NCBI GenBank assembly: GCA_965224085.1 | Contig: CBDCYI010000009.1 | Span: 288,001 to 352,000 of the forward strand | From: Candidatus Marinacidobacterales bacterium | GTDB lineage: Bacteria; Acidobacteriota; Vicinamibacteria; Marinacidobacterales; SMYC01 | DNA: 64,000 nt | Direction: 5' to 3' | Program-made: the position numbers and the translations under genes | Notes under the pieces: model-generated | The model's database searches: none | What the model saw: the letters and a program-made list of their open reading frames with translations, nothing else | Told to the model about the DNA's origin: nothing | Shown: piece by piece, positions 5,588 to 21,512 of the stretch | Position numbering within the stretch: the stretch's first letter is position 1 | How the letters are laid out: each line of letters opens with the position of its first letter

Positions 5588-6142
5588 GTGGAAATGTCCA
5601 GCCGCGATGAGCTCGAGAGCTTGGCGGAACAAGCTCGACAAGGAAGCTCGGAGGCCTGGGCCGAACTCTATGAAGCCAATGCACCCGCGATATTCCGACT
5701 TTGCCGCCGAGCTCTCAACAACCGGCAAGACGCTGAAGACGCCACCGCCGCCGTCTTTCTCAAGGCAAGGATGCGCCTCAAACAATTTGACACTTCGCGA
5801 CCCTTCGCACCTTGGATCTATCGCGTCGCGGCGAACCACTGCTGGGACGAGCTGCGCAAGCGAAGAACCCACGGCGAGTGGGACGAGGCCGAATCGGAGC
5901 TCCAAAAACTGCAAGACGATGCCCCAACGCCTCAGCAGGCGGTTTTGCTCAACGAGACCAAACGGAACGTCCGGAACGCCATCGCCGAGCTCGACGAACG
6001 AGCTCGGCTCGCCGTCATCCTGCGGTACTTCGCCGACATGAGCTACGAAGAGATCGGCGATGTGCTCGGCATTTCGAGCAATTTCACAGGGGTTTTGTTG
6101 CTGCGAGCGCGGCGTCAAATGAGGACGAGGCTCAAACAGTGA
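5588..6142 (+). CDS. ECF sigma-70 factor
   Basis: Region 2 (DAEDA...F..WIYRVAAN) and region 4 (MSYEEIGDVLG...LLRAR). Confidence 0.9.
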   Translation: MEMSSRDELESLAEQARQGSSEAWAELYEANAPAIFRLCRRALNNRQDAEDATAAVFLKARMRLKQFDTSRPFAPWIYRVAANHCWDELRKRRTHGEWDEAESELQKLQDDAPTPQQAVLLNETKRNVRNAIAELDERARLAVILRYFADMSYEEIGDVLGISSNFTGVLLLRARRQMRTRLKQ

Positions 6143-7767
6143 GCGAGAGCACGAAGCACGTCGAGGAGCTGACCGTCATGAGGTTTTTGGACGGCGAGCT
6201 CTCGCAGGAGCGCGAACAGAAAACGCGCGAGCATCTAATCTGCTGCGCCAGCTGTCGCTCGGCCCACGAAGCCTTGAAGGCGGAGACCGAGCTCTTGCGC
6301 GCCGCCGTGCTCGAGCGTGAAGAAGCGTTACCCGGCCATCTGAGGCCGCGTCACGCCGACGTGTCGTGGGTACTGGTGGCGATGATCGCGTTCGGCACGC
6401 TCGCCGTCTCGAGCCTTTGGACGCGCTATGTCCAGCCCATCATCGAAAGCATGGAGAGCATCGGGCTCGACGGGACGAGCGTCGCGACATCCCTTGTCGT
6501 TCAAGGAGTTCTCTGGGAAGGTTGGTCCGATATGTTGACGAGTTTCGTCGAGGGCGTGTCCCTCTTACTAGTGGCGGTCGCCGCGGGCTACGTGCTGCAT
6601 TGGGGCTGGCGACGCTTTCTTTCGTCGGCGGTGACACTCTCGCTGCTGCTGGTCGCCCTCCCGGGCCTACTCGCAGCGCCTGCGAGTGTTTCGGCTGCGA
6701 TCATCAAGCACGACGTGGAAACCTACACGCTGCGAGAAGGAGAGGTTATCGATAACGATCTCATCGTCTTCGGCAAGAGAGTTGTGATCGAGGGGACCGT
6801 CGTTGGCGACCTCATTGTCGGCGCGGGCTCCGTCGAAGTTTTGGGCGAAGTGCAGGGGGACGTTCTCGGCTTTGCTGAGCGCATCGAGGTAAATGGCCGG
6901 GTTGGCGGCAATGTGCGCACCTGCGCTCGCACGCTCGTTGTCAACGGAGAGGTGGGGCGCAACATCACCGCGGGCGGCGAGGTCATTCGCTTAGGCCCGG
7001 GAGCGACACTCGGAGGAAGCTTCACTGCCGGGTCGAAAGAAGTGAGTTTACGCGCACCGGTCACGCGCGATCTCGTAATGGCGGCCGAAACGTCCGAGAT
7101 CCACGCGCGTATCGGCGGCTCGGCACTCGTCTTCGGCGAACGGCTCACGGTGGGCCCGACCGGGGCCATCGGCGGCGAGGCGAGATTTTTCGGCTCCCAA
7201 GAGCCGGAAGTCTCGGCTGATGCCGAGCTCACTTCGCCATTCGAGTTCGAAAGGGTCGACGACGACGACGAGTCGCTGACGTCCAGAGTTTGGGCCTTCT
7301 TCGGATACTGGGCCGCCGCGTTCATATTGGGTGCCGCGATCATGCTCGTGACCCCCGAAGCGACGGAAGGCGTCGTGACCCGCCACGTCCCCGACTATGG
7401 CAAGAGCTTCGTCGTCGGCGTCGTCGCGTCCGTCGTGCTCTTCGCGTTCACCTTCCTTGTGTCGGTCACCGTCGTCGGTCTTCCTCTCGGGTTGACGACG
7501 GCTTTCTTCCTGACTATCGGGCTGTACTTCGCGCAAGCGTATATCGGGGCCTATATCGGCCGCGAGATTCTCGGTACACCAACCAGTGCCGGGCAAGCGC
7601 TCGGCCGCGTGGCACTCGGACTGTTTTTGATTTACATTGCCAAGTCGATTCCCGTCGTCAATGTTGTCGTTACGATCATTGTAGCTATCTGGGGTTTTGG
7701 GGCGCTGTCGCTTTACCTCATCGACCAACTCAAACACGCAAAGAAGGCCGACCCGGCGGAGGCTTGA
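6139..7767 (+). CDS. zf-HC2 anti-sigma factor fused to a bactofilin-like beta-helix repeat domain and a polytopic membrane domain
   Basis: GTG 6139 overlaps the sigma stop (GTGA). HLICCASC fits HxxxCxxC. TM helices are followed by repeats like VIEGTVVGDL/VEVLGEVQGDV/IEVNGRVGGNV and about 5 C-terminal TM segments. Confidence 0.7.
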   Translation: MSESTKHVEELTVMRFLDGELSQEREQKTREHLICCASCRSAHEALKAETELLRAAVLEREEALPGHLRPRHADVSWVLVAMIAFGTLAVSSLWTRYVQPIIESMESIGLDGTSVATSLVVQGVLWEGWSDMLTSFVEGVSLLLVAVAAGYVLHWGWRRFLSSAVTLSLLLVALPGLLAAPASVSAAIIKHDVETYTLREGEVIDNDLIVFGKRVVIEGTVVGDLIVGAGSVEVLGEVQGDVLGFAERIEVNGRVGGNVRTCARTLVVNGEVGRNITAGGEVIRLGPGATLGGSFTAGSKEVSLRAPVTRDLVMAAETSEIHARIGGSALVFGERLTVGPTGAIGGEARFFGSQEPEVSADAELTSPFEFERVDDDDESLTSRVWAFFGYWAAAFILGAAIMLVTPEATEGVVTRHVPDYGKSFVVGVVASVVLFAFTFLVSVTVVGLPLGLTTAFFLTIGLYFAQAYIGAYIGREILGTPTSAGQALGRVALGLFLIYIAKSIPVVNVVVTIIVAIWGFGALSLYLIDQLKHAKKADPAEA

Positions 7768-9495: not shown

Positions 9496-9565
9496 GTGTG
9501 ATCTTTAACACGAAACGTTCGCGCGATTGACGGTAGATGGGAAAAGCTTCGAAAAACTTCCGCTA

Positions 9566-9822
9566 AATGAAGGCGGGGGGCGCCCGAAGGCGCCCCCCTA
9601 TGATTCCAAAAGAACTGTTGCCAAGGATTATTTATGTGGAGTTGTTTAGGACGAGGTAAATGAAAAAGCAGGATAAAGTTGCGGGTTCGGTCGATGGATG
9701 GATAAGACCCGAGCTATGAGACACAGGCCTTTTGCGGACCCCTAGCGAACTGCTCGTCATGGAATCAACAAAGCGAGATCACTTTTTACTGTCCGATTAA
9801 TACTAATGTCGTGTTTAGGTAC
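9566..9822 (-). ncRNA. Candidate small RNA or long structured leader of leuB (family unrecognised)
   Basis: AT-rich region with no convincing ORF, between a near-consensus sigma70 promoter and a terminator-like hairpin. Long-range inverted repeat TGATTCCA (9601-9608)/TGGAATCA (9760-9767). Confidence 0.4.
9575..9598 (-). terminator. GC-rich hairpin, probable intrinsic terminator
   Basis: On the minus strand GGGGGGCGCC-TTCG-GGCGCCCCCC forms a perfect 10-bp stem with a C(UUCG)G loop. The U tail is weak (GCCTTCATTT). Confidence 0.55.
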
Positions 9823-9828
9823 AGCAAT

Positions 9829-9856
9829 ACTATAGGCGGCTTCCCTTTGGTGTCAA
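9829..9856 (-). promoter_or_regulatory. Sigma70-type promoter
   Basis: Minus strand TTGACA (9856-9851), 16-nt spacer, TATAGT (9834-9829). Confidence 0.65.
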
Positions 9857-10216
9857 GACGAAAAAGAAGAGGCGGGACCAAACCACGCCCAATTGACTAT
9901 CGATGAACGGTTTATCCGACAGGCGTCATTTCATACCGTAGATTTATGTAGGCGCTAGATCTTCCTTCCAATAATCAGAACCCGACTCAAACGGATGGCG
10001 CTTGATCTTCATTCGGCTTTTCGCGTAGTATTAGTGGCAGAGTTCGGGCTAATGCTAGTCCGGGCACCACAACCGGCACATCCACAACTGAAATCACGAT
10101 TCTCATATCGCGATAGCTATCTATCGAGGGGATGAGGCGACTTTGTCGCTTCGTCGCGCTGCCGCCACCCAACATCGCAAGCGGCAGTGGTTCGAAATGT
10201 CGAAAGGAGCGGAATC

Positions 10217-11032
10217 GTGCAGGAGTTTCTAGTAGCGGTCGTGGCCTTTCCCACGATCGTGTTCACGTTCGGTCTCGCGGTCGCCCTCCTCTACTGGCTC
10301 GTCGTGATCTTCGGCGCGCTCGACCTGGACTTTCTCGACAGCGCGCTCGGTCTCGACAGCATGGATGCCGCTCTCGACGGAGCGCTCGAATCGATCGACG
10401 GGATGGCAGACGGGGCCGTCGAAGGTGTGGTGGAATCGATCGATGGTGCGGTCGACGGCGCGGCGGAAGGCGCAGCGGACGCCGCTGATTCGGGAGATAC
10501 GAGCGACGGGGCCCGGCAGGGCGCCCTTTCCGGGCTCTTGAACATGATGGGTGTTCGCGGCGTTCCCATCACGGTCGTTGCGAGCTTCGTGCTGCTCTGG
10601 GCATGGATTATCAGCATGGTCGGCTCCAAATTGCTGGGCGCGGCGGCGGCGACGTTCCTCGTCGGCGGCTTTCTCACAGGATCATCGGTCCTCGGTTCGT
10701 TGGTCCTTGCGGCGGTCACCGCTCGGCCTTTCCGGAAAATCTTCGTGACACCCTCTGCGCCCAGTCGCGTTTCGCTCGTCGGAAAAATCTGTATCGTGAC
10801 TTCCGCGAAAGTCGACGGTGAGTTCGGCCGCGCCGAGATCGATGACGGCGCGACCGGTTTCGTCGCCGAAGTGCGATGCCCGCAGGACAACCAATTGACA
10901 CGAGGCGCCAACGCGCTCGTGTATCGCTACGACCCGGCCGACGGCGTCTTTTTCATTGGACCCGTCGACGATGCCTTGGCTACAGCATCGAATGTGGTCG
11001 ATTCACAGTCTGGCTCGATAGGGGGAGGATAA
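10217..11032 (+). CDS. YqiJ/NfeD-like membrane protein with a C-terminal OB fold (flotillin partner)
   Basis: AAGGAG RBS then GTG 10217. N-terminal TM (FPTIVFT), acidic D/G/A-rich linker, GVPITVV TM pair, SLVGKIC..T...FGRAE OB-fold tail. Directly upstream of an SPFH gene. Confidence 0.75.
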   Translation: MQEFLVAVVAFPTIVFTFGLAVALLYWLVVIFGALDLDFLDSALGLDSMDAALDGALESIDGMADGAVEGVVESIDGAVDGAAEGAADAADSGDTSDGARQGALSGLLNMMGVRGVPITVVASFVLLWAWIISMVGSKLLGAAAATFLVGGFLTGSSVLGSLVLAAVTARPFRKIFVTPSAPSRVSLVGKICIVTSAKVDGEFGRAEIDDGATGFVAEVRCPQDNQLTRGANALVYRYDPADGVFFIGPVDDALATASNVVDSQSGSIGGG

Positions 11033-13081
11033 ATGTATTGGGTAATGGTCATTATCGCCGTCGGCGTGGGCGTGCTCATTCTGGGCATGGGCCTTTTGAT
11101 GCTCATCGCCAAGTTCTATCGCAAGGTAGAACAAGGCAAAGCGCTCGTCGTCAACAAGATGAAGCAAGAGCCTGAAGTCACGTTTACCGGCGCCACGGTG
11201 CTCCCCGTAATCCACAAGGCCGAGGTCATGGATATCTCGGTGAAGACACTCGAGATCGACCGGCGCGCGAAAGACGGACTGATCTGCCGTGACAACATTC
11301 GGGCCGACATCAAAGTCAACTTCTTCGTCCGCGTAAATAAACGCAAGGAAGATGTCATCAGAGTCGCGCAGTCCATCGGCTGCGCCCGCGCCTCATCTCC
11401 CGAAACGCTCGACGAGCTCTTCAGCGCCAAGTTCTCCGAAGCGCTGAAGACGGTCGGCAAGCAGCTCGACTTCGTCGACCTCTACACGAAGCGCGACGAA
11501 TTTCGCGACGCCATCATCCAGATCATCGGGCGCGACTTGAACGGCTACGCGCTCGAGGACGCGGCCATCGACTATCTCGAGCAGACCCCCCTCTCACATC
11601 TCGACCCGCAGAACATCCTCGACGCCCAAGGCATTCGCCGTATTACCGAGCTCACCGCGATCGAGCACATCCAAACGAACGAGTTCGAGAACAACGAGAA
11701 AAAAGCCATCACGAAACAGGACGTCGAGCGCGCAAAAGTCATCCTCGAGCTCGATCGCGAGCATGCGGACGCTGAGTCGAAGCAAAAGCGCGAGATCGAA
11801 TCGGTACGCGCGCGCGAATTGGCCGCGCTCCAGCAAGTCCAGGCGGAAGAGCGGCTCAAGTCCGAAACGGCGCGCATCAAGACGGACGAAGAAGTCCAGG
11901 TCGCCGAGGAGAACAAGAATCGCCAGGTCCAGGTTGCTGCCAAGAACCGCGAGCGCATTATTGGCGTCGAGACCGAGCGGGTCTTGAAAGACCGCCAGCT
12001 CGAACAGGTGGTCCGCGAACGTGAAGTCGAGCTCCAGCGCATCGACAAAGAGAAAGCGCTCGAAGTCGAGCGAAAAGAGATCCAGGACGTTATCCGCGAA
12101 CGCGTCGCTGTCGAGCGCACCGTTGTCGAGGAACAGGAGCGCATCAAAGAGCTCCAGGTCGTCGAGGAGGCCAAGCGCACCAAGCAGGCCACCATCATTA
12201 CGGCCGAGGCCGAAGCGGAAGAAGCCCTCGTCAAGGACATCAAAGCCGCCGAGGCCCAGGAGCAGGCTGCGAAGCACAAAGCCGTCGAGCGCATCACCCT
12301 CGCCGACGCCCAGCTCGAGGCCGCCGACCGCGACGCAAAAGCCAAGATCCGTCTCGCGGAAGGTACCCAGGCGGAAGCCGCAGCCGAAGGGCTCGCGGCC
12401 GCGAGGGTCAAAGAGGCCGACGCCGTCGCCTCCGAGAAGCACGGCCTCGCTGAAGTCCGGGTCCAGGAAGCGCAAGCGGGCGCTATCGAGCAAGTCGGCA
12501 CCGCGGAAGCGACCGTGGTTCGCGAGAAAGGCGTCGCCGAGGCGCACACCATCCAGCAGAAGTTCGGCGCTGAGGCGAAAGGCCTCGCGGAAAAAGCCGA
12601 GGCGATGAAAGCGCTCGACAAAGACAGCCGCCAGCACGAGGAGTACCGCATCCGCCTCGAGAACGAGCGCCTGCTCGGTCTCGAAGCGATCCAAGCGCGC
12701 GAAGCCGTCGCCGCGCACAAAGCCCAGGTCCTCTCCAAAGCGCTCGAGTCGGCGGATATCGACATCGTCGGCGGCGACGGTGTCTTTCTCGACCGCATGG
12801 TGAATTCCATCAGCATGGGCAAGGGCGTCGACGAGCTCGTCGATCAAAGCGACGTCATCTCCGGGCTCGCCAAAGACTATTTCAATGGCGACAAGAACAT
12901 CATCAAAGAGATCCGTCAGATCATGAAGGATTCCGGCATCGACGGAGGCATGCTCAAGGACATCACCATCGGGGCGCTTCTGACGAAGATCGCTACCGAT
13001 ATGGGAGGAGACGATCACGAAAAACTGAAGAAGCTTCAACGGCAAGCCAAAGCCTTGGGCATCGACGACGTTCGGCTATAA
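11033..13081 (+). CDS. Flotillin/SPFH (band 7) family protein, YqiK-like
   Basis: N-terminal TM, SPFH domain (GLICRDNIRADIKVNFFVRVN, NILDAQG) and a long EA-rich coiled coil. Confidence 0.85.
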   Translation: MYWVMVIIAVGVGVLILGMGLLMLIAKFYRKVEQGKALVVNKMKQEPEVTFTGATVLPVIHKAEVMDISVKTLEIDRRAKDGLICRDNIRADIKVNFFVRVNKRKEDVIRVAQSIGCARASSPETLDELFSAKFSEALKTVGKQLDFVDLYTKRDEFRDAIIQIIGRDLNGYALEDAAIDYLEQTPLSHLDPQNILDAQGIRRITELTAIEHIQTNEFENNEKKAITKQDVERAKVILELDREHADAESKQKREIESVRARELAALQQVQAEERLKSETARIKTDEEVQVAEENKNRQVQVAAKNRERIIGVETERVLKDRQLEQVVREREVELQRIDKEKALEVERKEIQDVIRERVAVERTVVEEQERIKELQVVEEAKRTKQATIITAEAEAEEALVKDIKAAEAQEQAAKHKAVERITLADAQLEAADRDAKAKIRLAEGTQAEAAAEGLAAARVKEADAVASEKHGLAEVRVQEAQAGAIEQVGTAEATVVREKGVAEAHTIQQKFGAEAKGLAEKAEAMKALDKDSRQHEEYRIRLENERLLGLEAIQAREAVAAHKAQVLSKALESADIDIVGGDGVFLDRMVNSISMGKGVDELVDQSDVISGLAKDYFNGDKNIIKEIRQIMKDSGIDGGMLKDITIGALLTKIATDMGGDDHEKLKKLQRQAKALGIDDVRL

Positions 13082-13099
13082 CGGAAGGCTCACGTAATC

Positions 13100-16000
13100 A
13101 TGAGCACGGACGTACAACAACAACCCGAGATCGAGCGCGGCACTTACGAGATCATCCGGGACCGCTTGCTCGGCCACGGCAAGACACTCGCCGAGAAAGC
13201 CGATGGACTCAACAGGAAACGCCTCGAGATCTTCGGAGGCACCGAGCTCGCGGTCCTGGGCAACGAGCGCATCCGGACCGAGAACAACTGCATCCCGCGC
13301 GACATCAAGGAGGTGGGTAACCACCTCCTGTTCGGCTATAACGTTTTCATCGGCCTCAAGCGCGAGACTCGCGTTGAGGACGTTTTCAGCCTTCACAGCT
13401 ACGAGAAGACGGAGGACGGCTTCGTTTTTCGCAAAGTCGAAAAAAACTCTCCCGACTACTTTCTCTCGGACGTGAAATTTCTAGAGGAGTTCCACGAGCT
13501 CTATCACTATTACAAGAACACCAAGCTCCTCCAGCTGAGACGGGTCAGCGAGAAGCTTCTCGCGGTATTCCAAATTGGCGAGAAGATCGAGGACGTGCGC
13601 GTGTTCCGCTGGGCCATCTCCACCGACGGCGCGGTTACCTATATCGACAACCGCGGCGAGCGCGACCACGTTTTCCCTCGGACCCATGACTTCGAATGGA
13701 CGCTCACAGCGCGTGAAGAGCACGTGCAGGGCCGTCACCCGCACGTCAACATTCTCGACGAAGTTTTCGTCGAGACCGTCGGCGGCGATCTCACGATCAA
13801 GGTCGAGAACAACACCGAAGACGGCCAGGGTATCTATCGCGAGCCGGTGCTCGACGCCGACCAATCTTTGGACGACGCGGAAGTCCACTACGCAGAAGTG
13901 GGCACGCTCATTCTTCTGAAGATGCTCCCCTACCGCGAAACGGATTACCGATATCTCGTCTTCAACACGCGCACCAATCACGTCGATCGCATCGACGCCA
14001 TCGGCCAATCCTGCGTACAGCTTCCCGAGGACCACGGCGTCATCTTTCCGGGCGGCTACTACCTGAAGAGCGGCCACACAAAGTCCTTCGAGCGCGATTT
14101 CCGCGGGATGGAGTTCCTGAGACGTCTGCGCTCCCCGAACGGCGAAGACGTCCTTTACGCGTTTCACGAGCGTGAATCTGGGCGCACGATCCTACTTCCG
14201 TACAACATGATCCGGAAGGAGGTCGACAACCCGCTCAATTGCCACGGCTTCAGCCTCTATCCCGACGGCACGCTCGTCGTGTTCCGCGCTGGCGACGACG
14301 AGCCCAAACGCGTCCATGGGATGCAAGTCTGGCGCACGCCCTTCTTGAGCGAAGAGGCGGTGCAGTCGCGGCCGCCCACCGGCTCGTTCCTCGAGAAAGT
14401 GGGCAATGCCGAGCTCGTGCGCGGCGTCTCCGACTGCTTGAGCATTCGCCGCATGGTCGACGAGCAGGAGCCGACGCGGCAGAAATACGAGGACCTCGTC
14501 GCGGCGGCGGCACGCGTCATCGACAGCTATTACTGGCTCGACAACCCCGAGATTGGAGACCTGCGCGAGCCGCTCCGGAACGTTCACGAGTCCGCCGAGA
14601 GCATCATCGACGAGTTCGAAAAAGTCGAAGCGCTAAGGGCGCAAGCGAGAAGGACTCTCGACGAGGCCGGCGAGAAGGTCCAGGAGATCTTCCGAACCAT
14701 TTATCCCGATTCCTGGACCTCGATCGACCAATATGTCGCCTGTCTCGCGAGCTTACGCTCGGCGCGCGGGCACCTCATTACGCTCCGCGAAACACGCTAT
14801 GTCGATCTCGCCCGAATCGACACGGTCGAAGCGGAGATTGTCGAGCGCTTCGATAATGTCAGCGAGCGCGCCGTCGAGTTTCTTCTGCAAGACGAAGCAC
14901 TACTTCCCTATCAAGAACGCGCGGGCGCGCTCGAGGACGGTGTTCCCGGCCTCTCGAAAGTTACCGAGGCGAACGCCCATCAAGACGCCCTCCAAGAGTT
15001 CGGCGACAGTCTCGATCTCTTGACCGATGTGGTCAGCTCGCTCGAGATCGACGACGCCACGGTCCGCACGCAGATTCTCGGGAACATCTCGGAGATCTTG
15101 GGAAGCCTCAACCGCGTCCGTGCGCTCATCACCAACCGGCGCAAAGAGCTTCTCGGCAAAGAAGGCATCGCTGAGTTCGGCGTGCAATTCCAGCTTTTGA
15201 GCCAAAGCGTAACGAGCGCTCTATCTCTCTCCGACACGCCCGAGAAATGTGACGAACAGCTCTCGAAGCTCATGCTCCAGCTCGAAGATCTGGAAACCCG
15301 TTTCTCCGAGTACGAAGAGTTCACGGACGAGCTCACGACCAAGCGCGAGGAAATCTACGAGGCGTTCAGCTCGAAGAAGCAGTCCCTTGTCGACCGGCGC
15401 CAGCGCCGCGCGCAAAACTTGATGCAGGCCGCCGAGCGTATTCTAGGAAGTGTGACGCGGCGCGCGGAGACGTTCGAGACCGCCGACGACCTGAACGCCT
15501 ATTTCGCTGCTGACGCGATGGTCGCCAAGCTCCGGAGCACGTCAAACAATTTGCGAGAGCTCGGCGACTCTGTCCATGCCGACGAGATCGACGGCCGACT
15601 CAAAGCCGCCAAAGAAGACGCCGCCCGCGGACTTCGCGACCGCCAGGAGATCTACGAGGACGGCGCCAACGTCATCAAGCTCGGCAGGCACCGCTTCAGC
15701 GTCAACACTCAGCCTCTCGAGCTCACCATGGTGCCTCGCGACGACGCCATGGCCTTTCATCTCACCGGCACCGGCTTCTACGAGCAGGTCGACGATGAGA
15801 CCTTCGGAAAAACGCAGGATTTCTGGTCGCAAGAGCTCGTTTCCGAAACGCGTTCAGTCTATCGGGGCGAATATCTGGCCTATTGCGTGCTCGAAGACGC
15901 AGAGCTCGGAGATTCCGAGTTGTCGCTCAAGAAGCTCCTCCAAGCCACCCGCGGCGAAGGGGCGCTTCTGGGCATCATACGCGACTATGCGGCTCTGAGA

Positions 16001-18472
16001 TATGACGAGGGGTATGAGCGCGGCCTCCACGACGCCGACGCGACGCTGATCTTGCAAAAGATCCTGGGCATGCACGAGACCGCGGATCTGCTTCGCTTCA
16101 CCCCGAACGCGCGCGCACTGGCTACCGTTTTCTGGGCGCTCTACGACGACCGGAAAAAGCGCGCGGCCTGGGAAAGCCAAGCTCGCAGCCTCGTCCGCCT
16201 CCGCACCCAATTCGAGCACACGGAGGCGATGACGGAGCTCGGTGGCGAGCTCAACGAAGCGATCGCGACCCATCTCGCCGAGATCGGGATCGATGTGCCG
16301 ACGCAGGCGTCCCGTCTAGCCGGCGCCTACCTGCTCGAAGAGATCGCGCGCGAGCCGCAGAAATTCGTCCTGAGCGCGGATGCAAACGAGCTCAAGCGCG
16401 CTTTCGAAAAGCACTTGCGTGAGTCCGGCGGCGACCGCGAGCTCGAACAGGACTTGCGCGCGCTCAGCGACACGCCCGTGCGCGCTTACGAGCTCACGGA
16501 GGCGTGGATGGCCGCCTTTCTCTCGAGCTCGGAAAACGGCGATCGCTTGGCTCGCTCTTCCCTCGAGGCCGTCGTCGCGCTTCTTTTCGAAGACAAAGTG
16601 AGCCGAGACACCTCGAGCGCGCAGTCCAAAGTCACGGTCGAGGGGCTCCTTGGCCAGCACCCCCGCATGCCGCAAGGCCGTATGGAGCTCCATCTAGACG
16701 AATTCCTCTCGCGGCTCGGCCATTTTCGACATCGACAAGTCAGAGGCTTCAGAGAGTTCCAAAAAGCCCGCCACGACGTGCTCGAGCACGAGCGTGAGAA
16801 TCTACGTCTCGACGAGTACAAGCCCAAGGTCATGTCGTCTTTCGTGCGCAACCGGCTCATCAACGACGTGTATCTACCGCTCATCGGCGACAACCTCGCG
16901 AAACAGATGGGGGCTCTCGGCGACGCCAAGCGCACCGACCTCATGGGGATGCTTCTCCTCATCTCACCTCCGGGCTACGGCAAGACGACTTTGATGGAGT
17001 ACCTCGCCAACCGGCTCGGCCTCGTCTTCATGAAGATTAACGGCCCCGCCCTCGGCCACTCGGTCACATCGCTAGATCCAGGCGAAGCACCGAACGCCAC
17101 CGCGCGCCAGGAGGTCAACAAGCTCAACCTCGCTTTCGAGATGGGCAACAACGTCCTTCTCTACATCGACGACATCCAGCACACCCATCCCGAATTTCTC
17201 CAGAAATTCATCTCGCTCTGCGACGCACAGCGAAAAGTGGAAGGTGTTTGGAAAGGTCGGACGCGCACTTACGATCTGCGCGGCAAGAAGTTCGTCGTGT
17301 GCATGGCGGGAAACCCTTACACGGAATCCGGCGAAAAATTCCAAATCCCAGACATGCTCGCGAACCGCGCCGATACCTACAATCTAGGCGACATCCTCGA
17401 AGGCAAAGACGACTTCTTCGCGCTTTCCTACATCGAGAACGCGCTCACGTCGAACGCCGTCCTCGCGCCCCTCACGACGCGCGAGCAAAGCGATATCGAG
17501 TTGCTCGTGCGCATGGCGAATGGCGAGGCGATTCAAGCGGATCAGTTGAAGCACGGCTACTCCGCCGTCGAGATCGGCGAGATCCAGTCCGTTTTGAAGA
17601 AGCTTCTCAAAGTCCAGCAGGTGCTCCTCGCGATCAACCAGCAATATATTCGCTCGGCGTCGCAAGAAGACGCCTATCGCACCGAGCCGCCTTTCAAGCT
17701 CCAGGGGAGCTACCGCAACATGAACAAGCTCGCTGAGAAGATCGTGGCCGCGATGAACGACGACGAGCTCGAAAGCCTCATCGACGACCACTATCTCGGC
17801 GAATCGCAGACTTTGACGACGGGCGCCGAAGAGAACCTTCTCAAGCTTGCCGAGATGCGCAGCCGGATGAGCGAGAGCCAGAAGGCACGCTGGGAGGAGA
17901 TCAAAAGCGGTTTCGTTCGAGTGCAACGCATGGGGGGCGGCGACGACGACCCCGCGACGAGGCTCACGGGACAGCTCAGCCTGGTCTCCGAGCATCTCGA
18001 AGACATCGGTCAGAGCATCGAGCGCGCCGCCTCGAGTGCTGCTTCTCGCCCGCAAGCGATCTCGGCGGATCCCGACCTCAGCGCGTTCACCGCGCGGGAC
18101 GTCGAGGTCAAGCTCGACCTCGCTCCCTATATCGACAAGCTCCACGAGCTTCTCGAGGCCTTCCAGAACGGGCAAACACAACTCGCCGCCGCACCGCAGA
18201 TCAAGGGCGAGGCCCAGGCGCCGCCAGCGGATTACGAGCTCATCTCACGCGAGTCCTACCTCATCGAAGGCACCCTCATCCCGTTGATGCGCTTCATGGC
18301 GCATCGCTTCCGGGGCTATCGCGGGGTGGACGACCCGAAAATCAAAGCGCTCATACAGAGACTCGAATATGTCGACGATCTCCAGGAGCTCGTCAACGCG
18401 CTCGAGAAAATCAACGTCTCCGCCCTCTCGAACATAACCGACGAAGAGGAGACGGACGAGGCCTCGACATGA
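13100..18472 (+). CDS. Large coiled-coil AAA+ ATPase (family usually auto-annotated 'DNA repair ATPase', DUF3686-like N-terminus)
   Basis: 1790 aa. Beta-rich N-terminal region, long helical middle, then Walker A SPPGYGKTT, Walker B LLYIDD, sensor AGNP and LANRAD. Confidence 0.75.
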   Translation: MSTDVQQQPEIERGTYEIIRDRLLGHGKTLAEKADGLNRKRLEIFGGTELAVLGNERIRTENNCIPRDIKEVGNHLLFGYNVFIGLKRETRVEDVFSLHSYEKTEDGFVFRKVEKNSPDYFLSDVKFLEEFHELYHYYKNTKLLQLRRVSEKLLAVFQIGEKIEDVRVFRWAISTDGAVTYIDNRGERDHVFPRTHDFEWTLTAREEHVQGRHPHVNILDEVFVETVGGDLTIKVENNTEDGQGIYREPVLDADQSLDDAEVHYAEVGTLILLKMLPYRETDYRYLVFNTRTNHVDRIDAIGQSCVQLPEDHGVIFPGGYYLKSGHTKSFERDFRGMEFLRRLRSPNGEDVLYAFHERESGRTILLPYNMIRKEVDNPLNCHGFSLYPDGTLVVFRAGDDEPKRVHGMQVWRTPFLSEEAVQSRPPTGSFLEKVGNAELVRGVSDCLSIRRMVDEQEPTRQKYEDLVAAAARVIDSYYWLDNPEIGDLREPLRNVHESAESIIDEFEKVEALRAQARRTLDEAGEKVQEIFRTIYPDSWTSIDQYVACLASLRSARGHLITLRETRYVDLARIDTVEAEIVERFDNVSERAVEFLLQDEALLPYQERAGALEDGVPGLSKVTEANAHQDALQEFGDSLDLLTDVVSSLEIDDATVRTQILGNISEILGSLNRVRALITNRRKELLGKEGIAEFGVQFQLLSQSVTSALSLSDTPEKCDEQLSKLMLQLEDLETRFSEYEEFTDELTTKREEIYEAFSSKKQSLVDRRQRRAQNLMQAAERILGSVTRRAETFETADDLNAYFAADAMVAKLRSTSNNLRELGDSVHADEIDGRLKAAKEDAARGLRDRQEIYEDGANVIKLGRHRFSVNTQPLELTMVPRDDAMAFHLTGTGFYEQVDDETFGKTQDFWSQELVSETRSVYRGEYLAYCVLEDAELGDSELSLKKLLQATRGEGALLGIIRDYAALRYDEGYERGLHDADATLILQKILGMHETADLLRFTPNARALATVFWALYDDRKKRAAWESQARSLVRLRTQFEHTEAMTELGGELNEAIATHLAEIGIDVPTQASRLAGAYLLEEIAREPQKFVLSADANELKRAFEKHLRESGGDRELEQDLRALSDTPVRAYELTEAWMAAFLSSSENGDRLARSSLEAVVALLFEDKVSRDTSSAQSKVTVEGLLGQHPRMPQGRMELHLDEFLSRLGHFRHRQVRGFREFQKARHDVLEHERENLRLDEYKPKVMSSFVRNRLINDVYLPLIGDNLAKQMGALGDAKRTDLMGMLLLISPPGYGKTTLMEYLANRLGLVFMKINGPALGHSVTSLDPGEAPNATARQEVNKLNLAFEMGNNVLLYIDDIQHTHPEFLQKFISLCDAQRKVEGVWKGRTRTYDLRGKKFVVCMAGNPYTESGEKFQIPDMLANRADTYNLGDILEGKDDFFALSYIENALTSNAVLAPLTTREQSDIELLVRMANGEAIQADQLKHGYSAVEIGEIQSVLKKLLKVQQVLLAINQQYIRSASQEDAYRTEPPFKLQGSYRNMNKLAEKIVAAMNDDELESLIDDHYLGESQTLTTGAEENLLKLAEMRSRMSESQKARWEEIKSGFVRVQRMGGGDDDPATRLTGQLSLVSEHLEDIGQSIERAASSAASRPQAISADPDLSAFTARDVEVKLDLAPYIDKLHELLEAFQNGQTQLAAAPQIKGEAQAPPADYELISRESYLIEGTLIPLMRFMAHRFRGYRGVDDPKIKALIQRLEYVDDLQELVNALEKINVSALSNITDEEETDEAST

Positions 18473-18536
18473 ACGCGCTAGACCTGCGCGCCATGTTACG
18501 ATTCCCAAAACCGGTTCTCACCGAAGGGAGTTCGTG

Positions 18537-19292
18537 ATGGGGTTATTCGAGCGGATCCGAGCGGTCTGGTACGCCATAATCAACAAATCCGTCACTGAGA
18601 TGGAGGACGCGCACGTGATCGCACTCGCGGAGCACAAGCTCCAGCAGGCCACCGAGCGACTGAAAGAGGCGCGCCAAGGCTTGATCAGCTATCAAGCACT
18701 CGTTTTGAAAGTCGAAGGGCAAGTCGGAAGCGAAAAGTCGCGCATCGCGAGCGTCACCGGGCAGATCAAGAACCACTTGAAGGCCAATCAGGAAGAGATG
18801 GCCGGCCAGCTCGCTCTCGAGCTCGCTCGGGTCAAAGGCGAGCTCGAAAGCAACACCGAGCAGCTCGCACAACATCGCGAGAGCTACGAGAACAACCTTC
18901 TGAAGATGAAAGCGGCGCTCAAGGACATCGAGACGGCCAAGCAGGACCTCGACAAGAAGAAAGCCGCGCTTCAGATGGAGAAGGCTTTGGCCGAAGTCTC
19001 CGAGACCGCCGGCGCGCTCAACACCCAGTTCGATGTTTCTTCCGACATCGGCTCGATCCTGAGCCGCGTCGACGACCAGATCAATAAAGCCAAAGCGCGC
19101 TCGAAGGTCGCCTCCGATCTGAGCGATCAAGGCATCGATCAGCTCAAAGCGAAGCAATCGGCAGACAAGGCCGAAGCTCAGGAGCTTCTCGCGCAGTTCA
19201 AGATCGAGCAGGGGCTCGCCGAGCCGTCTTCAGAAGCAAGTGAGAAAACTGTAGGACCGCAGAGAGAAGCCACGCCAGAGTCCGGTGAATAG
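18537..19292 (+). CDS. PspA/IM30 (Vipp1, ESCRT-III superfamily) protein
   Basis: Amphipathic N-terminal helix MGLFERIRAVWYAIINK, helical hairpin with EEMAGQLA, and C-terminal AQELLAQFK. About 250 aa, all coiled coil. GGGAG RBS. Confidence 0.75.
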   Translation: MGLFERIRAVWYAIINKSVTEMEDAHVIALAEHKLQQATERLKEARQGLISYQALVLKVEGQVGSEKSRIASVTGQIKNHLKANQEEMAGQLALELARVKGELESNTEQLAQHRESYENNLLKMKAALKDIETAKQDLDKKKAALQMEKALAEVSETAGALNTQFDVSSDIGSILSRVDDQINKAKARSKVASDLSDQGIDQLKAKQSADKAEAQELLAQFKIEQGLAEPSSEASEKTVGPQREATPESGE

Positions 19293-21006
19293 CCCTTTGG
19301 GAAGCGGCGCGCCCACTTGGGCGCGGGAGCTTGCCTCGAGCTATGTCAGTGGGGCTGCAAGCGTCTTCCTTCTCTATGGAAACGTCCACGACCTCGTTCC
19401 GGTCACGGACTCGGACGAGTTCATCTCGCTCGACGACTATCTCGCCACGCAGCTCTTCGGCCAACGGGACATCGTTCTCGCCTACGATCGCGGTAGCGGC
19501 ATCCGCTTTCTCGCTCCCGGGGATGCCGACCGTCGGGCGTCCATGCAAGAGGACTTTTACAAGACGCTCAAAGCCGTGGACTCGGTAAGCGGCACAAGCT
19601 TCGCGAGCTCGAGGCCTAAAGATCCCAAAGTCGTGTTCGAGCTCCTCGACCGCTACATCCTCCACAAGCTCGTCGAAACGCCTGCAGACGGCAATCGCAA
19701 GAGCCTCGCGATCGTGATCTGCTATGTCGAGACCATCACGCCGGCCGTCGATGGCTCGTGGCTCACGGGCGAGCTCGGCGCCAACCTCATCAAAGTGCTC
19801 AATTGGGCCAACGACCCTGGGATTCGAAGCGCTGATGTGACGCTTTGTCTCGTCACGGAGAACCTCGGCGACGTAAACCGCCGCCTCGTCGAGAACCCAT
19901 TCATCTCTAAAGTAGACGTCGAGCTCCCGGACGAGACGACGCGTGAGCGCTACGCGAGGCATTTGTTGAAAGACGCAGCAATGGCGAAGACGGTGGCCCG
20001 TGAAGGCAACGGGCTGACGCTCGTCGGTCTCGCACAGGCGGTCAGTGGCTCCGTCGAGCTCGCCAATTTGCAAGCGGCCAAAAAGGAGCTCATCGAGAAA
20101 CAGTGCTTCGGCCTCGTCGAGTTCGTTGCTCCGAGCTACGACCTCGACATGGTTGTCGCGCCCGAGGCAGTCAAAGACCGCCTCGAGCAAGACGTGTCGC
20201 TATTCAAGAAGGGACGGCTCGAAGCGCTCCCGATGGGCTATCTCCTCTGCGGGGTCATCGGCACCGGCAAGACATTTACGGCAACATGCTTTGCAGGAAG
20301 CCTCGGCATCCCAACGATCGTCTTCAAGAACCTCCGCAGCAAGTGGGTCGGAAGCTCCGAAGGCAATCTCCAAAAAGTGCTCTCGGTGATCAAAGCCCTC
20401 GGCCCCGTCGTCGTCGTCGTCGATGAAGCCGATGCCGCGCTGGGAAGCCGCGGGTCGAGCGGGGACAGCGGCACGTCGAGCCGCATGTTCGCGATGATCT
20501 CGTCACTCATGAGCGACACCGGTTACCGGGGGCGCATCCTGTGGATGCTCCTCACTTGCCGTCCTGACATGTTGCCCGTCGATTTGAAGCGGCAAGGTCG
20601 CTGCGAGGTCCACATCCCGCTCTTCCCGCCCGAGACTGAGAAGGCCCGCCACCAAATGTTTCTCGCGATGGCGCGCACAAACGGCGTCGCGATCGCTCCC
20701 AGCGACGTTCCCACCCTGCCGGAAGAGCTCTCGGGCGCGGACATCGAAAGTCTGCTCGTGCAATGCGTCCGCCGCGCCGCGATCGCGGGCGCTGCTTCGC
20801 TCTCCGCCGCGCATATCCGTGACACGCTTGCCCACTTTCGATCACCGGATTATGGTCTCGAGAAGGAGCTGCAGCAGCTCGTCGCCATCCGCGAGAGCAC
20901 CGACCCCAACTTCATCCCAAAGCGACTGCGAACGCGTTACGGAGCGCCGGACAAGGCGATAGCCCTCGAGCACCGCATTCAGGAGATCGCAGCACTTCTC
21001 CAATGA
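19285..21006 (+). CDS. Classical-clade AAA ATPase with a degenerate N-terminal AAA-like domain
   Basis: Walker A GVIGTGKT, pore loop SKWVGSSE, Walker B VVDEAD and SRH TCRPDMLPVDLKRQGR. Start overlaps the PspA-like stop. Confidence 0.85.
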   Translation: MNSPLGSGAPTWARELASSYVSGAASVFLLYGNVHDLVPVTDSDEFISLDDYLATQLFGQRDIVLAYDRGSGIRFLAPGDADRRASMQEDFYKTLKAVDSVSGTSFASSRPKDPKVVFELLDRYILHKLVETPADGNRKSLAIVICYVETITPAVDGSWLTGELGANLIKVLNWANDPGIRSADVTLCLVTENLGDVNRRLVENPFISKVDVELPDETTRERYARHLLKDAAMAKTVAREGNGLTLVGLAQAVSGSVELANLQAAKKELIEKQCFGLVEFVAPSYDLDMVVAPEAVKDRLEQDVSLFKKGRLEALPMGYLLCGVIGTGKTFTATCFAGSLGIPTIVFKNLRSKWVGSSEGNLQKVLSVIKALGPVVVVVDEADAALGSRGSSGDSGTSSRMFAMISSLMSDTGYRGRILWMLLTCRPDMLPVDLKRQGRCEVHIPLFPPETEKARHQMFLAMARTNGVAIAPSDVPTLPEELSGADIESLLVQCVRRAAIAGAASLSAAHIRDTLAHFRSPDYGLEKELQQLVAIRESTDPNFIPKRLRTRYGAPDKAIALEHRIQEIAALLQ

Positions 21007-21512
21007 AAGACGGCCTCGTTCGCAGACAAGTCAAGCGCATCGGCCTCGGCGTCTTCCACGCGCGTCTGTTTCTTCACCGCCTTCAGGCCGACACGCGTTA
21101 CGAGCTCGGCGGCGAGTGCATCCGCTGCGGCAAATGTTGCTTGGAGCCAGGAATTCAAGTCGGCCGCATCGCTTGGTACCTCCCCGGCTGCCGGCGGGTC
21201 TTTCTCTGGTGGCACCGAGTTGTCAACGGCTTCACGCTCAAGGAGGCCCGGCGGGAAGACCGCGTGTTCATTTTTGAGTGCAGCCATTTCGACTGGGCGT
21301 CGCGGAGCTGCGACAGCTACCACTCCCGGCCCGGAATGTGCCGCGACTACCCGCGCCTGTTCCTCGAACAGGCCAACCCCGAGTTTTTCGACGAGTGCGG
21401 TTTCAAAGCGCTCGCTCGAGGCCGGGACAGCCTCATCCAAATTCTCGAGAAAGAATCTCTTACGCCGCAGCAGCTGGCCAAGCTGAAAAAAGGCCTTTAT
21501 CTCGAAGATTGA
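21003..21512 (+). CDS. YkgJ-family CxxCxxCC cysteine-cluster protein
   Basis: CIRCGKCC and C.HF......C..Y..RP.MCRDYP. ATGA overlap with the AAA gene. Confidence 0.8.
   Translation: MKDGLVRRQVKRIGLGVFHARLFLHRLQADTRYELGGECIRCGKCCLEPGIQVGRIAWYLPGCRRVFLWWHRVVNGFTLKEARREDRVFIFECSHFDWASRSCDSYHSRPGMCRDYPRLFLEQANPEFFDECGFKALARGRDSLIQILEKESLTPQQLAKLKKGLYLED

Follow-up and report, generated by a model that had tools for sequence, protein, structure and literature searches.

A flotillin–giant ATPase triad joined to a PspA–AAA+ pair in one family of Marinacidobacterales: a candidate membrane-remodelling locus

Layout of the locus

The locus considered here lies in a 64,000-nucleotide (nt) stretch (the window) of contig CBDCYI010000009.1 from a Candidatus Marinacidobacterales bacterium (Acidobacteriota) and consists of six genes, g1 to g6, encoding an NfeD/YqiJ-like membrane protein, a YqiK-type flotillin, a giant AAA+ protein that carries DUF3686, a divergent PspA, a two-domain AAA+ protein and a cysteine-cluster protein, respectively. 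An earlier note, made from the sequence of this DNA, had proposed that the six genes form a single machine and a candidate undescribed system. Genome comparison shows that the locus is made of two separately conserved modules, module A (g1-g3) and module B (g4-g5), and is not one six-gene system. The A-then-B fusion is particular to several genera of one family and recurs once, in reversed order, in a Planctomycetota genome.

All six open reading frames (ORFs) are on the plus strand in one orientation and together span 10217-21512 (Table 1). The coordinates of the ORF list confirm the co-orientation, the spacing and the overlapping stop and start codons that the earlier note had described: g1 and g2 abut (0 nt), g2 and g3 are 18 nt apart, and g3 and g4 are separated by 61-64 nt (with ATG 18537 or GTG 18534 as the start of g4), while g4 overlaps g5 by 8 nt and g5 overlaps g6 by 4 nt. 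The identities first proposed for the six genes hold as well, by Pfam for g3-g6 and by fold, BLASTP and the names of homologues for g1 and g2. Ordinary chromosomal genes flank the cluster, including leuB upstream of g1, glutamate dehydrogenase, lepA, a hemN-like gene, transporters and oxidoreductases, and the GC content is even over the window (about 0.57-0.64). The closest homologues bear names from Vicinamibacteria and Acidobacteriota, and together with synteny to the Acidobacteriota contig L010 they point to an acidobacterial genome.

Table 1. Features of the locus, with positions counted from the first nucleotide of the window (aa, amino acids; AF2, AlphaFold2)
Feature	Positions	Strand	Basis
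leuB	9495 to 8425	-	
Non-coding block upstream of g1, candidate promoter or 5' leader	10026..10138		Kept among fused-cluster genomes
g1, NfeD/YqiJ-like membrane protein, 271 aa	10217..11032	+	AF2 fold, Foldseek, BLASTP to DUF1449 protein
g2, YqiK-type flotillin, 682 aa	11033..13081	+	Names and PF01145 of homologues
g3, giant soluble AAA+ protein, 1,790 aa	13100..18472	+	Pfam, sequence, AF2 model of aa 1200-1790
g4, divergent PspA/IM30 (ESCRT-III superfamily), 251-252 aa	18534..19292	+	PF04012
g5, two-domain AAA+ protein, 573 aa	19285..21006	+	Pfam AAA, alignment, PDB sequence matches
g6, CxxCxxCC (YkgJ-type) Cys-cluster protein, 169 aa	21003..21512	+	PF03692

Distribution of the two modules

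Module A is conserved as a unit. DUF3686, the domain that marks g3, occurs in 9/301 genomes sampled from the phylum of the window (source genome included) and in 39/301 Planctomycetota genomes. All eight other DUF3686-positive genomes of the phylum sample keep g1-g2-g3 in the same order, with the g1-like gene directly before the SPFH gene in 8/8 loci. Copies of DUF3686 are also present on large plasmids and chromids, and in the five such records inspected, which come from four phyla, a flotillin or SPFH-size gene stands directly upstream of the gene labelled 'DNA repair ATPase' (5/5). The flanks of triad loci were searched by tblastn with the window proteins and with five PspA clades, and 26 flanking ORFs (14 downstream, 12 upstream) were scanned with Pfam; counterparts of g4-g6 (PspA, the second AAA gene and the Cys gene) were found in none of the seven triad loci with downstream sequence outside the family.

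Module B has its own range. The g5 family was examined in 80 loci from Acidobacteriota, Planctomycetota, Gemmatimonadota, Myxococcales, Thermodesulfobacteriota and Acidimicrobiales, and in 61 loci a co-directional PspA gene precedes g5, at a distance of 20-538 nt in 42 loci and of 4.3-4.8 kb in 19, where genes for an SBP-OmpA protein and ABC components lie between. Two loci have no PspA although their upstream sequence extends for at least 5.5 kb, and the remaining 17/80 are too short to tell. No g1-g3 counterpart occurs within 10 kb in any of the 80. The two halves of the cluster are thus unlinked in relatives outside the family (0/7 and 0/80), and the proposal of one six-gene machine falls on this point.

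Several variants of the module B neighbourhood were observed. In most phyla (L011, L040, L042, L019, L033 and others) the PspA-AAA pair is accompanied by ABC transporter genes and by one for a protein of 570-600 aa with a periplasmic binding domain and an OmpA domain; these genes sit either within the pair or after its AAA gene, and the family of the window is without them at the locus. On a Phycisphaerae contig, a gene for a '23S rRNA intervening sequence protein' (PF05635; L012:9531-9914) lies between PspA and the AAA gene.

Fusion and decay within the family

Eighteen other genomes of the window's family were compared, of which 9/18 carry DUF3686 and 15/18 the N-terminal domain of g5. Three genomes of the same genus as the window (G301, G302 and G303) read leuB, g1 g2 g3 g4 g5, as do G309 and G312, and g5 identity to the window among relatives with the fused cluster falls from about 90% to 71%; because the same order persists at such divergence (71-90%), the arrangement is not due to chance. 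G310 retains the fused order, but its g3 continues in a second reading frame from near aa 1000 (one frameshift). In the fragmented genome G308 the end of DUF3686 and g5 share a contig at a spacing of 4,722 nt (4,752 nt expected), and in G311 the genes g1, g2 and the start of g3 reach the end of a contig. The cluster is conserved within one family, in the same order across several genera.

Other members of the family lack parts of the locus. G305 and three more genomes of its genus have g5 and no DUF3686 match. In G304, which belongs to the genus of the window, g1 and g2 are frameshifted and a deletion runs from aa 617 of g2 to aa 95 of g6. In G315, aa 1-47 of g1 are joined to a g3 remnant with at least four frame changes, followed by aa 2-73 of PspA, and g5 is missing; in G306 only aa 346-459 of g5 are left. 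In outgroup-rooted trees of g5 and PspA, the genus with module B only is nested inside the fused-cluster genomes (support 91/92 and 86/79). Such a topology is explained more parsimoniously by loss of module A than by two insertions, and loss is favoured, at moderate tree support. The nearest outgroup, L011, still holds transporter genes.

Proteins of module A

The product of g1 most likely starts at GTG 10217, which is preceded by AAAGGAG, within an ORF of 10187/10217-11032. It has three transmembrane (TM) helices, a disordered acidic linker rich in Gly, Asp and Ala, and a C-terminal OB-like beta domain; hydrophobic segments lie at about residues 1-41, 113-143 and 146-169. The AF2 model (33-sequence alignment) has a predicted local distance difference test score (pLDDT) of 75.6, with residues 190-250 at about 83-92. 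Foldseek searches of the PDB with the beta domain recovered YbbJ of the QmcA-YbbJ complex (8z5g_AA, E 3.7e-4), YuaF (2k14, TMt 0.68, root-mean-square deviation (rmsd) 2.4), 3cp0 (TMt 0.84, rmsd 1.1) and 3wwv (TMt 0.74). No Pfam or NCBIfam model matches g1 even at E<=10, the NfeD and YqiJ/DUF1449 models included, and no Pfam domain was found among 82 database homologues; yet a Hymenobacter plasmid protein annotated as DUF1449 (YqiJ family) aligns with it from end to end by BLASTP (E 2e-10). On these alignments g1 is a divergent NfeD/YqiJ relative that lies outside present model coverage.

The product of g2 is predicted to contain a single N-terminal TM anchor (aa 1-30), an SPFH-like region and a long helical region rich in Glu, Ala and Lys. 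Its homologues, 61-94% identical, are labelled 'flotillin family protein' or 'YqiK', and some of those at 61-74% carry PF01145. The protein itself has no Pfam or NCBIfam match at E<=10 (Band_7 included) and no PDB sequence match. An acidobacterial triad locus, L006, holds an extra paralogue of 192 aa between its YqiJ-like and flotillin genes (L006:2162-2740); this short protein is 39% identical to aa 5-193 of g2 and matches Band_7 at 1.4e-9.

The product of g3 belongs to the DUF3686 family (PF12458; aa 30-478, 704 bits, E 8e-212, profile 2-448 of 448), whose N-terminus is described as a beta-propeller in excerpts from Ravi et al. 2024 (PMC11237479). DUF7902 follows at aa 599-683 (89 bits), the middle of the protein is long and helical, and AAA matches at 1283-1410 mark a single AAA+ module at about aa 1240-1590, with the Walker A motif GYGKTT and the Walker B motif LLYIDD, before a helical C-terminal tail of low confidence. 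No TM segments are predicted, and the genome has one copy of the gene. In the AF2 model of aa 1200-1790 (pLDDT 70.5), the motor was compared by VIA-align: NorQ/CbbQ structures fill all of the top 10 rows (Z 15.4-17.1, 226-253 of 231-267 residues aligned), with dynein/Rea1 (Z about 14) and ClpA (about 13.7) in lower rows. The model thus suggests, with moderate confidence because the margin is 1-3 Z units, a MoxR-like AAA+ motor rather than one of the classical AAA clade. No VWA partner gene is present at the locus, and the literature search found no paper mentioning 'DUF3686'.

Databases label g3 a DNA repair ATPase, which would make the cluster one that serves nucleoid or DNA transactions. This rests on the Pfam description of PF12458, on 'DNA repair ATPase' product names and on a weak, P-loop-level similarity to RuvB. 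That similarity covers some 45 residues around Walker A and reaches 20 bits against a cut-off of 282, Pfam detects no nuclease, helicase or DNA-binding domain in g3, the AAA+ fold is nearest to MoxR-type NorQ/CbbQ, and the constant partners of the gene are two membrane proteins. A role in DNA repair is accordingly very improbable, and the earlier note's suspicion of a misannotation is supported, as neither domains nor context back the label and a flotillin gene always precedes g3 (8/8 phylum loci and 5/5 plasmid or chromid records).

Proteins of module B

The product of g4 matches PF04012 (PspA_IM30) at 44.1 bits (cut-off 33.9) over residues 3-226 (profile 1-218 of 220); of its alternative starts, GTG 18534 and ATG 18537, the latter is preceded by GAAGGGAG. 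Since the genome holds a canonical PspA elsewhere (133 bits, G000:C9:521089-521772, about 214 kb from the cluster), g4 is an additional, specialised paralogue. AAA-linked PspAs share a C-terminal tail motif, F-x4-G-L-x2-P followed by K-x-[LV]-G-P, the two parts of which are present in 52/58 and 57/58; a similar tail also occurs in the divergent subfamily of G434 and G040. A third, weak PspA-like match was seen on contig C4 of the source genome.

The product of g5 matches Pfam AAA at E 1.5e-20. Its C-terminal domain carries Walker A (GTGKT), Walker B (DEAD(A)), the pore loop KWVG and an RQGR motif, all invariant in 15/15 aligned homologues, and its best PDB sequence matches are the D2 domains of VAT (E 7e-30), AFG2 (9e-27) and Cdc48 (3e-25), in a range that extends to 1e-24. 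By these sequence criteria the domain belongs to the classical AAA clade and is Cdc48/VAT D2-like. Against the CdvC model, g5 scores 29.4 bits with a cut-off of 650; it is thus, judging from its sequence, not a member of the Vps4/CdvC family, though it may work like Vps4.

The N-terminal domain of g5 (1-300) has no P-loop ('LYGNVHDLV'), with 'HGNVHD' at the position expected for one. Neither MIT nor any other Pfam domain was found in aa 1-305, and the domain has no PDB sequence match. It is a putative degenerate AAA+ fold; hhalign of the N-domain against the profile of the C-domain gives a probability of 1.4%, and the aligned stretch is only the colinear 'IEIPLPD..R..F' lid junction. At E<=1e-3 the domain family comprises 1,012 cluster representatives. 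Three members of the g5 family (P0329, P0341 and P0349) bear an N-terminal extension of about 250 aa of no recognisable family. They were considered as PspA-AAA fusion proteins of the Rosetta-stone kind and rejected, as the extensions have no PspA_IM30 match and the PspA-profile probability is 0.6% for P0329 and 0.1% for P0341.

Evidence for and against joint action of the modules

The cluster is best read as a membrane-stress or membrane-remodelling unit in which g5 may recycle PspA as Vps4 recycles ESCRT-III. In this lineage-specific fusion, two separately conserved membrane-maintenance modules probably act together. One argument is the gene order kept among the genera of the family. A further one is a second, independent juxtaposition, in the Planctomycetota genome G434, where PspA, a gene with two AAA domains, a 192-aa ORF, an alpha/beta hydrolase gene, a YqiJ-like gene, a flotillin gene and the giant ATPase gene follow one another on one strand. 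Another is co-occurrence: with presence called at E<=1e-10, the N-domain of g5 is found in 22/39 Planctomycetota genomes with DUF3686 vs 26/262 others, and in 5/8 vs 39/292 genomes in the phylum of the window. The modules also decay jointly, both being degraded in G304 and G315. Finally, other PspA clades have been joined independently to the triad, on a Hymenobacter plasmid and on pQBR103 of P. fluorescens. In G434 (locus L107, G434:C64, 2565-8458), a CHASE2-adenylate/guanylate cyclase gene was seen to precede PspA, and the 192-aa ORF belongs to no family.

The alternative is that the modules are functionally independent neighbours, the triad having been inserted between leuB and a PspA-AAA operon, or that their synteny is merely inherited. 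Several observations weigh on this side. Outside the family the modules stand apart almost everywhere (0/7 triad loci and 0/80 g5 loci, as above); none of five PspA-AAA genomes from other phyla carries DUF3686; adjacency is seen in only 1/22 of the co-occurring Planctomycetota genomes; and a detectable PspA lies beside 2/5 of the g5-like genes checked in genomes with module A. Within the family, one genus keeps module B intact without module A at the same leuB site: both G305 and an Acidobacteriota contig (L010) read leuB and then PspA-AAA-Cys-DUF502. Conservation throughout the family could reflect vertical inheritance over modest divergence, and g4 may have its own promoter, because a gap of 61-64 nt precedes it. 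The co-occurrence odds ratios, about 11 in two phyla, are uncorrected for relatedness or genome size. Against independence stand the recurrence of the juxtaposition in another phylum with the gene order reversed, those same odds ratios, the loss of A and B together in G304 and G315, and the repeated recruitment of other PspA clades to the same triad. On balance, independence is the less likely account, though it keeps an appreciable share of the probability. What survives of the earlier note is thus the cooperation of the modules, which has some support from the second juxtaposition, the co-occurrence and the joint decay; the single machine does not.

A scheme can be proposed for how the two modules would cooperate. 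The NfeD/YqiJ-type protein with three TM helices (g1) and the YqiK-type flotillin (g2) would together form a scaffold or cage of SPFH type at the cytoplasmic membrane, on which g3 would dock to remodel the scaffold or its clients through its MoxR-like motor. PspA (g4), as a bacterial ESCRT-III, would polymerise on stressed membrane, and g5 would engage the conserved C-terminal tail of g4 and extract subunits from the polymer, as Vps4 does for ESCRT-III. The scheme presumes that g1-g5 interact physically and are co-transcribed, that the tail motif acts as proposed and that a physiological signal triggers the unit. At its furthest, it would mean that some bacteria hold a functional counterpart of ESCRT-III/Vps4, formed by a tail-marked PspA and a Cdc48-derived unfoldase, which is coupled here, and independently in one Planctomycetota genome, to a giant MoxR-like motor and a flotillin/NfeD cage; the whole would be a four-part machine of scaffold, polymer and two motors that uses ATP to repair membranes or form vesicles. 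This extended proposal is speculative and is advanced only tentatively.

A third possibility, also raised in the earlier note, is that the cluster, or the triad alone, is a membrane-acting anti-phage or abortive-infection system. The distribution of DUF3686 is patchy (9/301 and 39/301 genomes), the locus has repeatedly decayed or been lost within one family, copies are carried on large plasmids and chromids, and g5 resembles AAA models of the IetA/IteA type (PADLOC E 1.9e-14; NCBIfam 48 bits). The IteA score, however, compares with a cut-off of 510 bits, the PADLOC IetA match spans the generic AAA core only, and no IetS-like partner was found among the seven proteins scanned. The products of g1-g4 and g6 have no meaningful PADLOC match; the flanks of the cluster and of related loci hold metabolic, transport and signalling genes and no defence islands; and among 21 pattern matches in viral contigs none is a g3 relative. 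With no signal in PADLOC, gene neighbourhoods or viral contigs, a defence function is improbable.

Neighbouring genes and non-coding elements

The Cys-cluster gene g6 matches PF03692 at 26.5 bits (cut-off 23) and overlaps the stop codon of g5, and the earlier note had counted it as part of the system. Outside close relatives it adjoins g5 in only 1/80 loci (L010). In G312, g5 is followed by neither g6 nor g7, a DUF502 gene; in the decayed loci of G315 and G306, where the intact copy of g5 has been lost, both g6 and g7 are full length, and in G304 g6 is truncated to aa 95-169. Because they persist at full length in G315 and G306 and are absent elsewhere, g6 is probably a neighbour and not a component, and the same pattern argues for g7 as a neighbour.

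The non-coding block upstream of g1 was recognised by blastn: positions 531-643 of the intergenic sequence of the window match L094 (G309) at 77%, and the match to L091 (81%) extends over the entire spacer. A search of this block for sigma-70-type sites gave none, and promoter and terminator predictions are at chance (2 found vs 2.3 expected, and 14 vs 14.4). Apart from this block and a conserved element near leuB, blastn of the spacers gave nothing; no repeats that could be insertion scars around module A occur in 9496-10300; and the Rfam scan of the window matched no family. The second element, about 140 nt at 9565-9711 upstream of leuB, is 75-86% conserved in all family genomes compared, whichever gene stands on its other side, and contains a perfect 10-bp GC hairpin (9575-9598) with no Rfam match. 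It may be a leader or regulatory element of leuB.

Two further proteins in the window were observed. The one encoded upstream of leuB (5812-7767, 651 aa) has an anti-sigma-like zf-HC2 motif at its N-terminus and is syntenic in the family genomes fetched, and a 987-aa protein (32663-35626) is an unusual fusion of a response-regulator receiver with a PPDK_N domain (phosphoenolpyruvate-utilising, ATP-binding).

Significance

The locus is of value mainly because it points to a possible, testable counterpart of ESCRT-III/Vps4 in bacteria and to what a flotillin-linked giant ATPase may do. The PspA-AAA+ pair bears on the question of how bacterial ESCRT-III-like polymers (PspA, Vipp1) are disassembled; the pair is conserved over several phyla, its threading pore loop is intact and the PspA tail is conserved, and the question is therefore testable in vitro. 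The flotillin-giant ATPase triad is found widely under the wrong label of 'DNA repair ATPase', and its fusion to the PspA-AAA pair hints at its role. For both purposes the family supplies natural variants, the locus being intact in some genomes, represented by module B alone in others and decayed in three (G304, G306 and G315).

Comparison with known systems

Both modules are on record, so the cluster is not the undescribed system that it was first taken for. Excerpts from Ravi et al. 2024 (PMC11237479) describe an operon of YqiJ/YuaF, band-7/flotillin and a giant AAA+ protein, linked to PspA, and, separately, PspA with a two-AAA+ protein whose N-terminal copy is inactive; the link of PspA with flotillin and AAA+ is therefore also described there. 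Popp et al. 2022 (PMC9239133), again in excerpt, report band-7/FloT beside 11/19 acidobacterial PspAs, with NfeD as partner. The pairwise links that the earlier note named from comparative genomics are borne out, PspA-flotillin and PspA-AAA in the former paper and PspA-band-7/FloT in the latter. The literature search found no paper that joins the triad with the PspA two-AAA+ pair, though the supplements of Ravi et al. (Text S2.2, Table S3) may list more variants.

The triad operon of Ravi et al., as far as the excerpts describe it, matches g1-g2-g3 in order, in domains and in its link to PspA, and Hymenobacter and pQBR103 of P. fluorescens offer further instances. It differs in that PspA in the window is downstream of the triad, preceded by g3, and not upstream, and in that the window adds a second, Cdc48-like ATPase. 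Unlike the CesT/Tir-PspA-YqiJ-flotillin-AAA+(-PLD) operon, the window has neither a CesT/Tir (DUF2170/YjfI) nor a PLD gene among the ten ORFs scanned (5.8-24.0 kb). The PspA of the Hymenobacter plasmid is also distinct, being 25% identical to g4 over 171 aa (E 8e-5), and g4 falls in the AAA-partnered clade. The pair g4-g5 fits what the excerpts say of the PspA-two-AAA+ set, and ABC, SBP and OmpA genes occur in related loci; in contrast, the locus of the window's family lacks transporter and OmpA genes and has the flotillin triad instead.

ESCRT systems are described as confined to archaea and eukaryotes in excerpts from Makarova et al. 2024 (PMC10936438), where archaeal ESCRT loci can include SPFH and substrate-binding proteins, and a 2025 review (PMC7619361) states, in the portion available, that a Vps4-like ATPase 'appears absent in bacteria'. 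The likeness of the window to ESCRT-III/Vps4 (CdvB/CdvC) is that the gene of an ESCRT-III superfamily polymer lies directly upstream of a classical-clade AAA+ gene with an aromatic pore loop. The differences are that g5 is without MIT, has an extra degenerate N-domain and is nearer in sequence to the D2 domain of Cdc48/VAT than to CdvC.

The bacABCDEF operon of P. aeruginosa is a co-transcribed six-gene PspA operon (PMC2587700, PMC10948618), and among related PspA operons it alone has experimental data, given in the excerpts of these papers: osmotic shock induces its PspA, and mutants have biofilm, rhamnolipid and virulence phenotypes. Like the cluster of the window, it has six genes with PspA and, as the excerpts give their sizes, membrane proteins that resemble YqiJ (23 kDa) and flotillin (76 kDa). 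It differs in BacA, a DUF2170/YjfI chaperone-like regulator that is absent in the window, and in its sigma-54 promoter. The equivalence of BacC-F to the triad would follow from the comparison that the bac authors draw, in the same excerpts, with Ravi et al.

Paired SPFH and NfeD proteins, as in QmcA-YbbJ of E. coli (8z5g) and YuaF/FloT of B. subtilis, share with the window the NfeD OB fold of g1 and its place directly before the SPFH gene; g1 differs by its long acidic linker and by the lack of an NfeD/YqiJ Pfam match, and g2 by being a 682-aa protein of the YqiK type. The SPFH protein YdjI of B. subtilis is reported to recruit PspA to the membrane, according to excerpts from three sources (PMC9239133, PMC7619361, PMC10936438). 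Unlike the locus of the window, QmcA-YbbJ, YuaF/FloT and PspA-YdjGHI of B. subtilis have no ATPase. Set beside these systems, the locus is a family-specific fusion of two known but experimentally uncharacterised modules.

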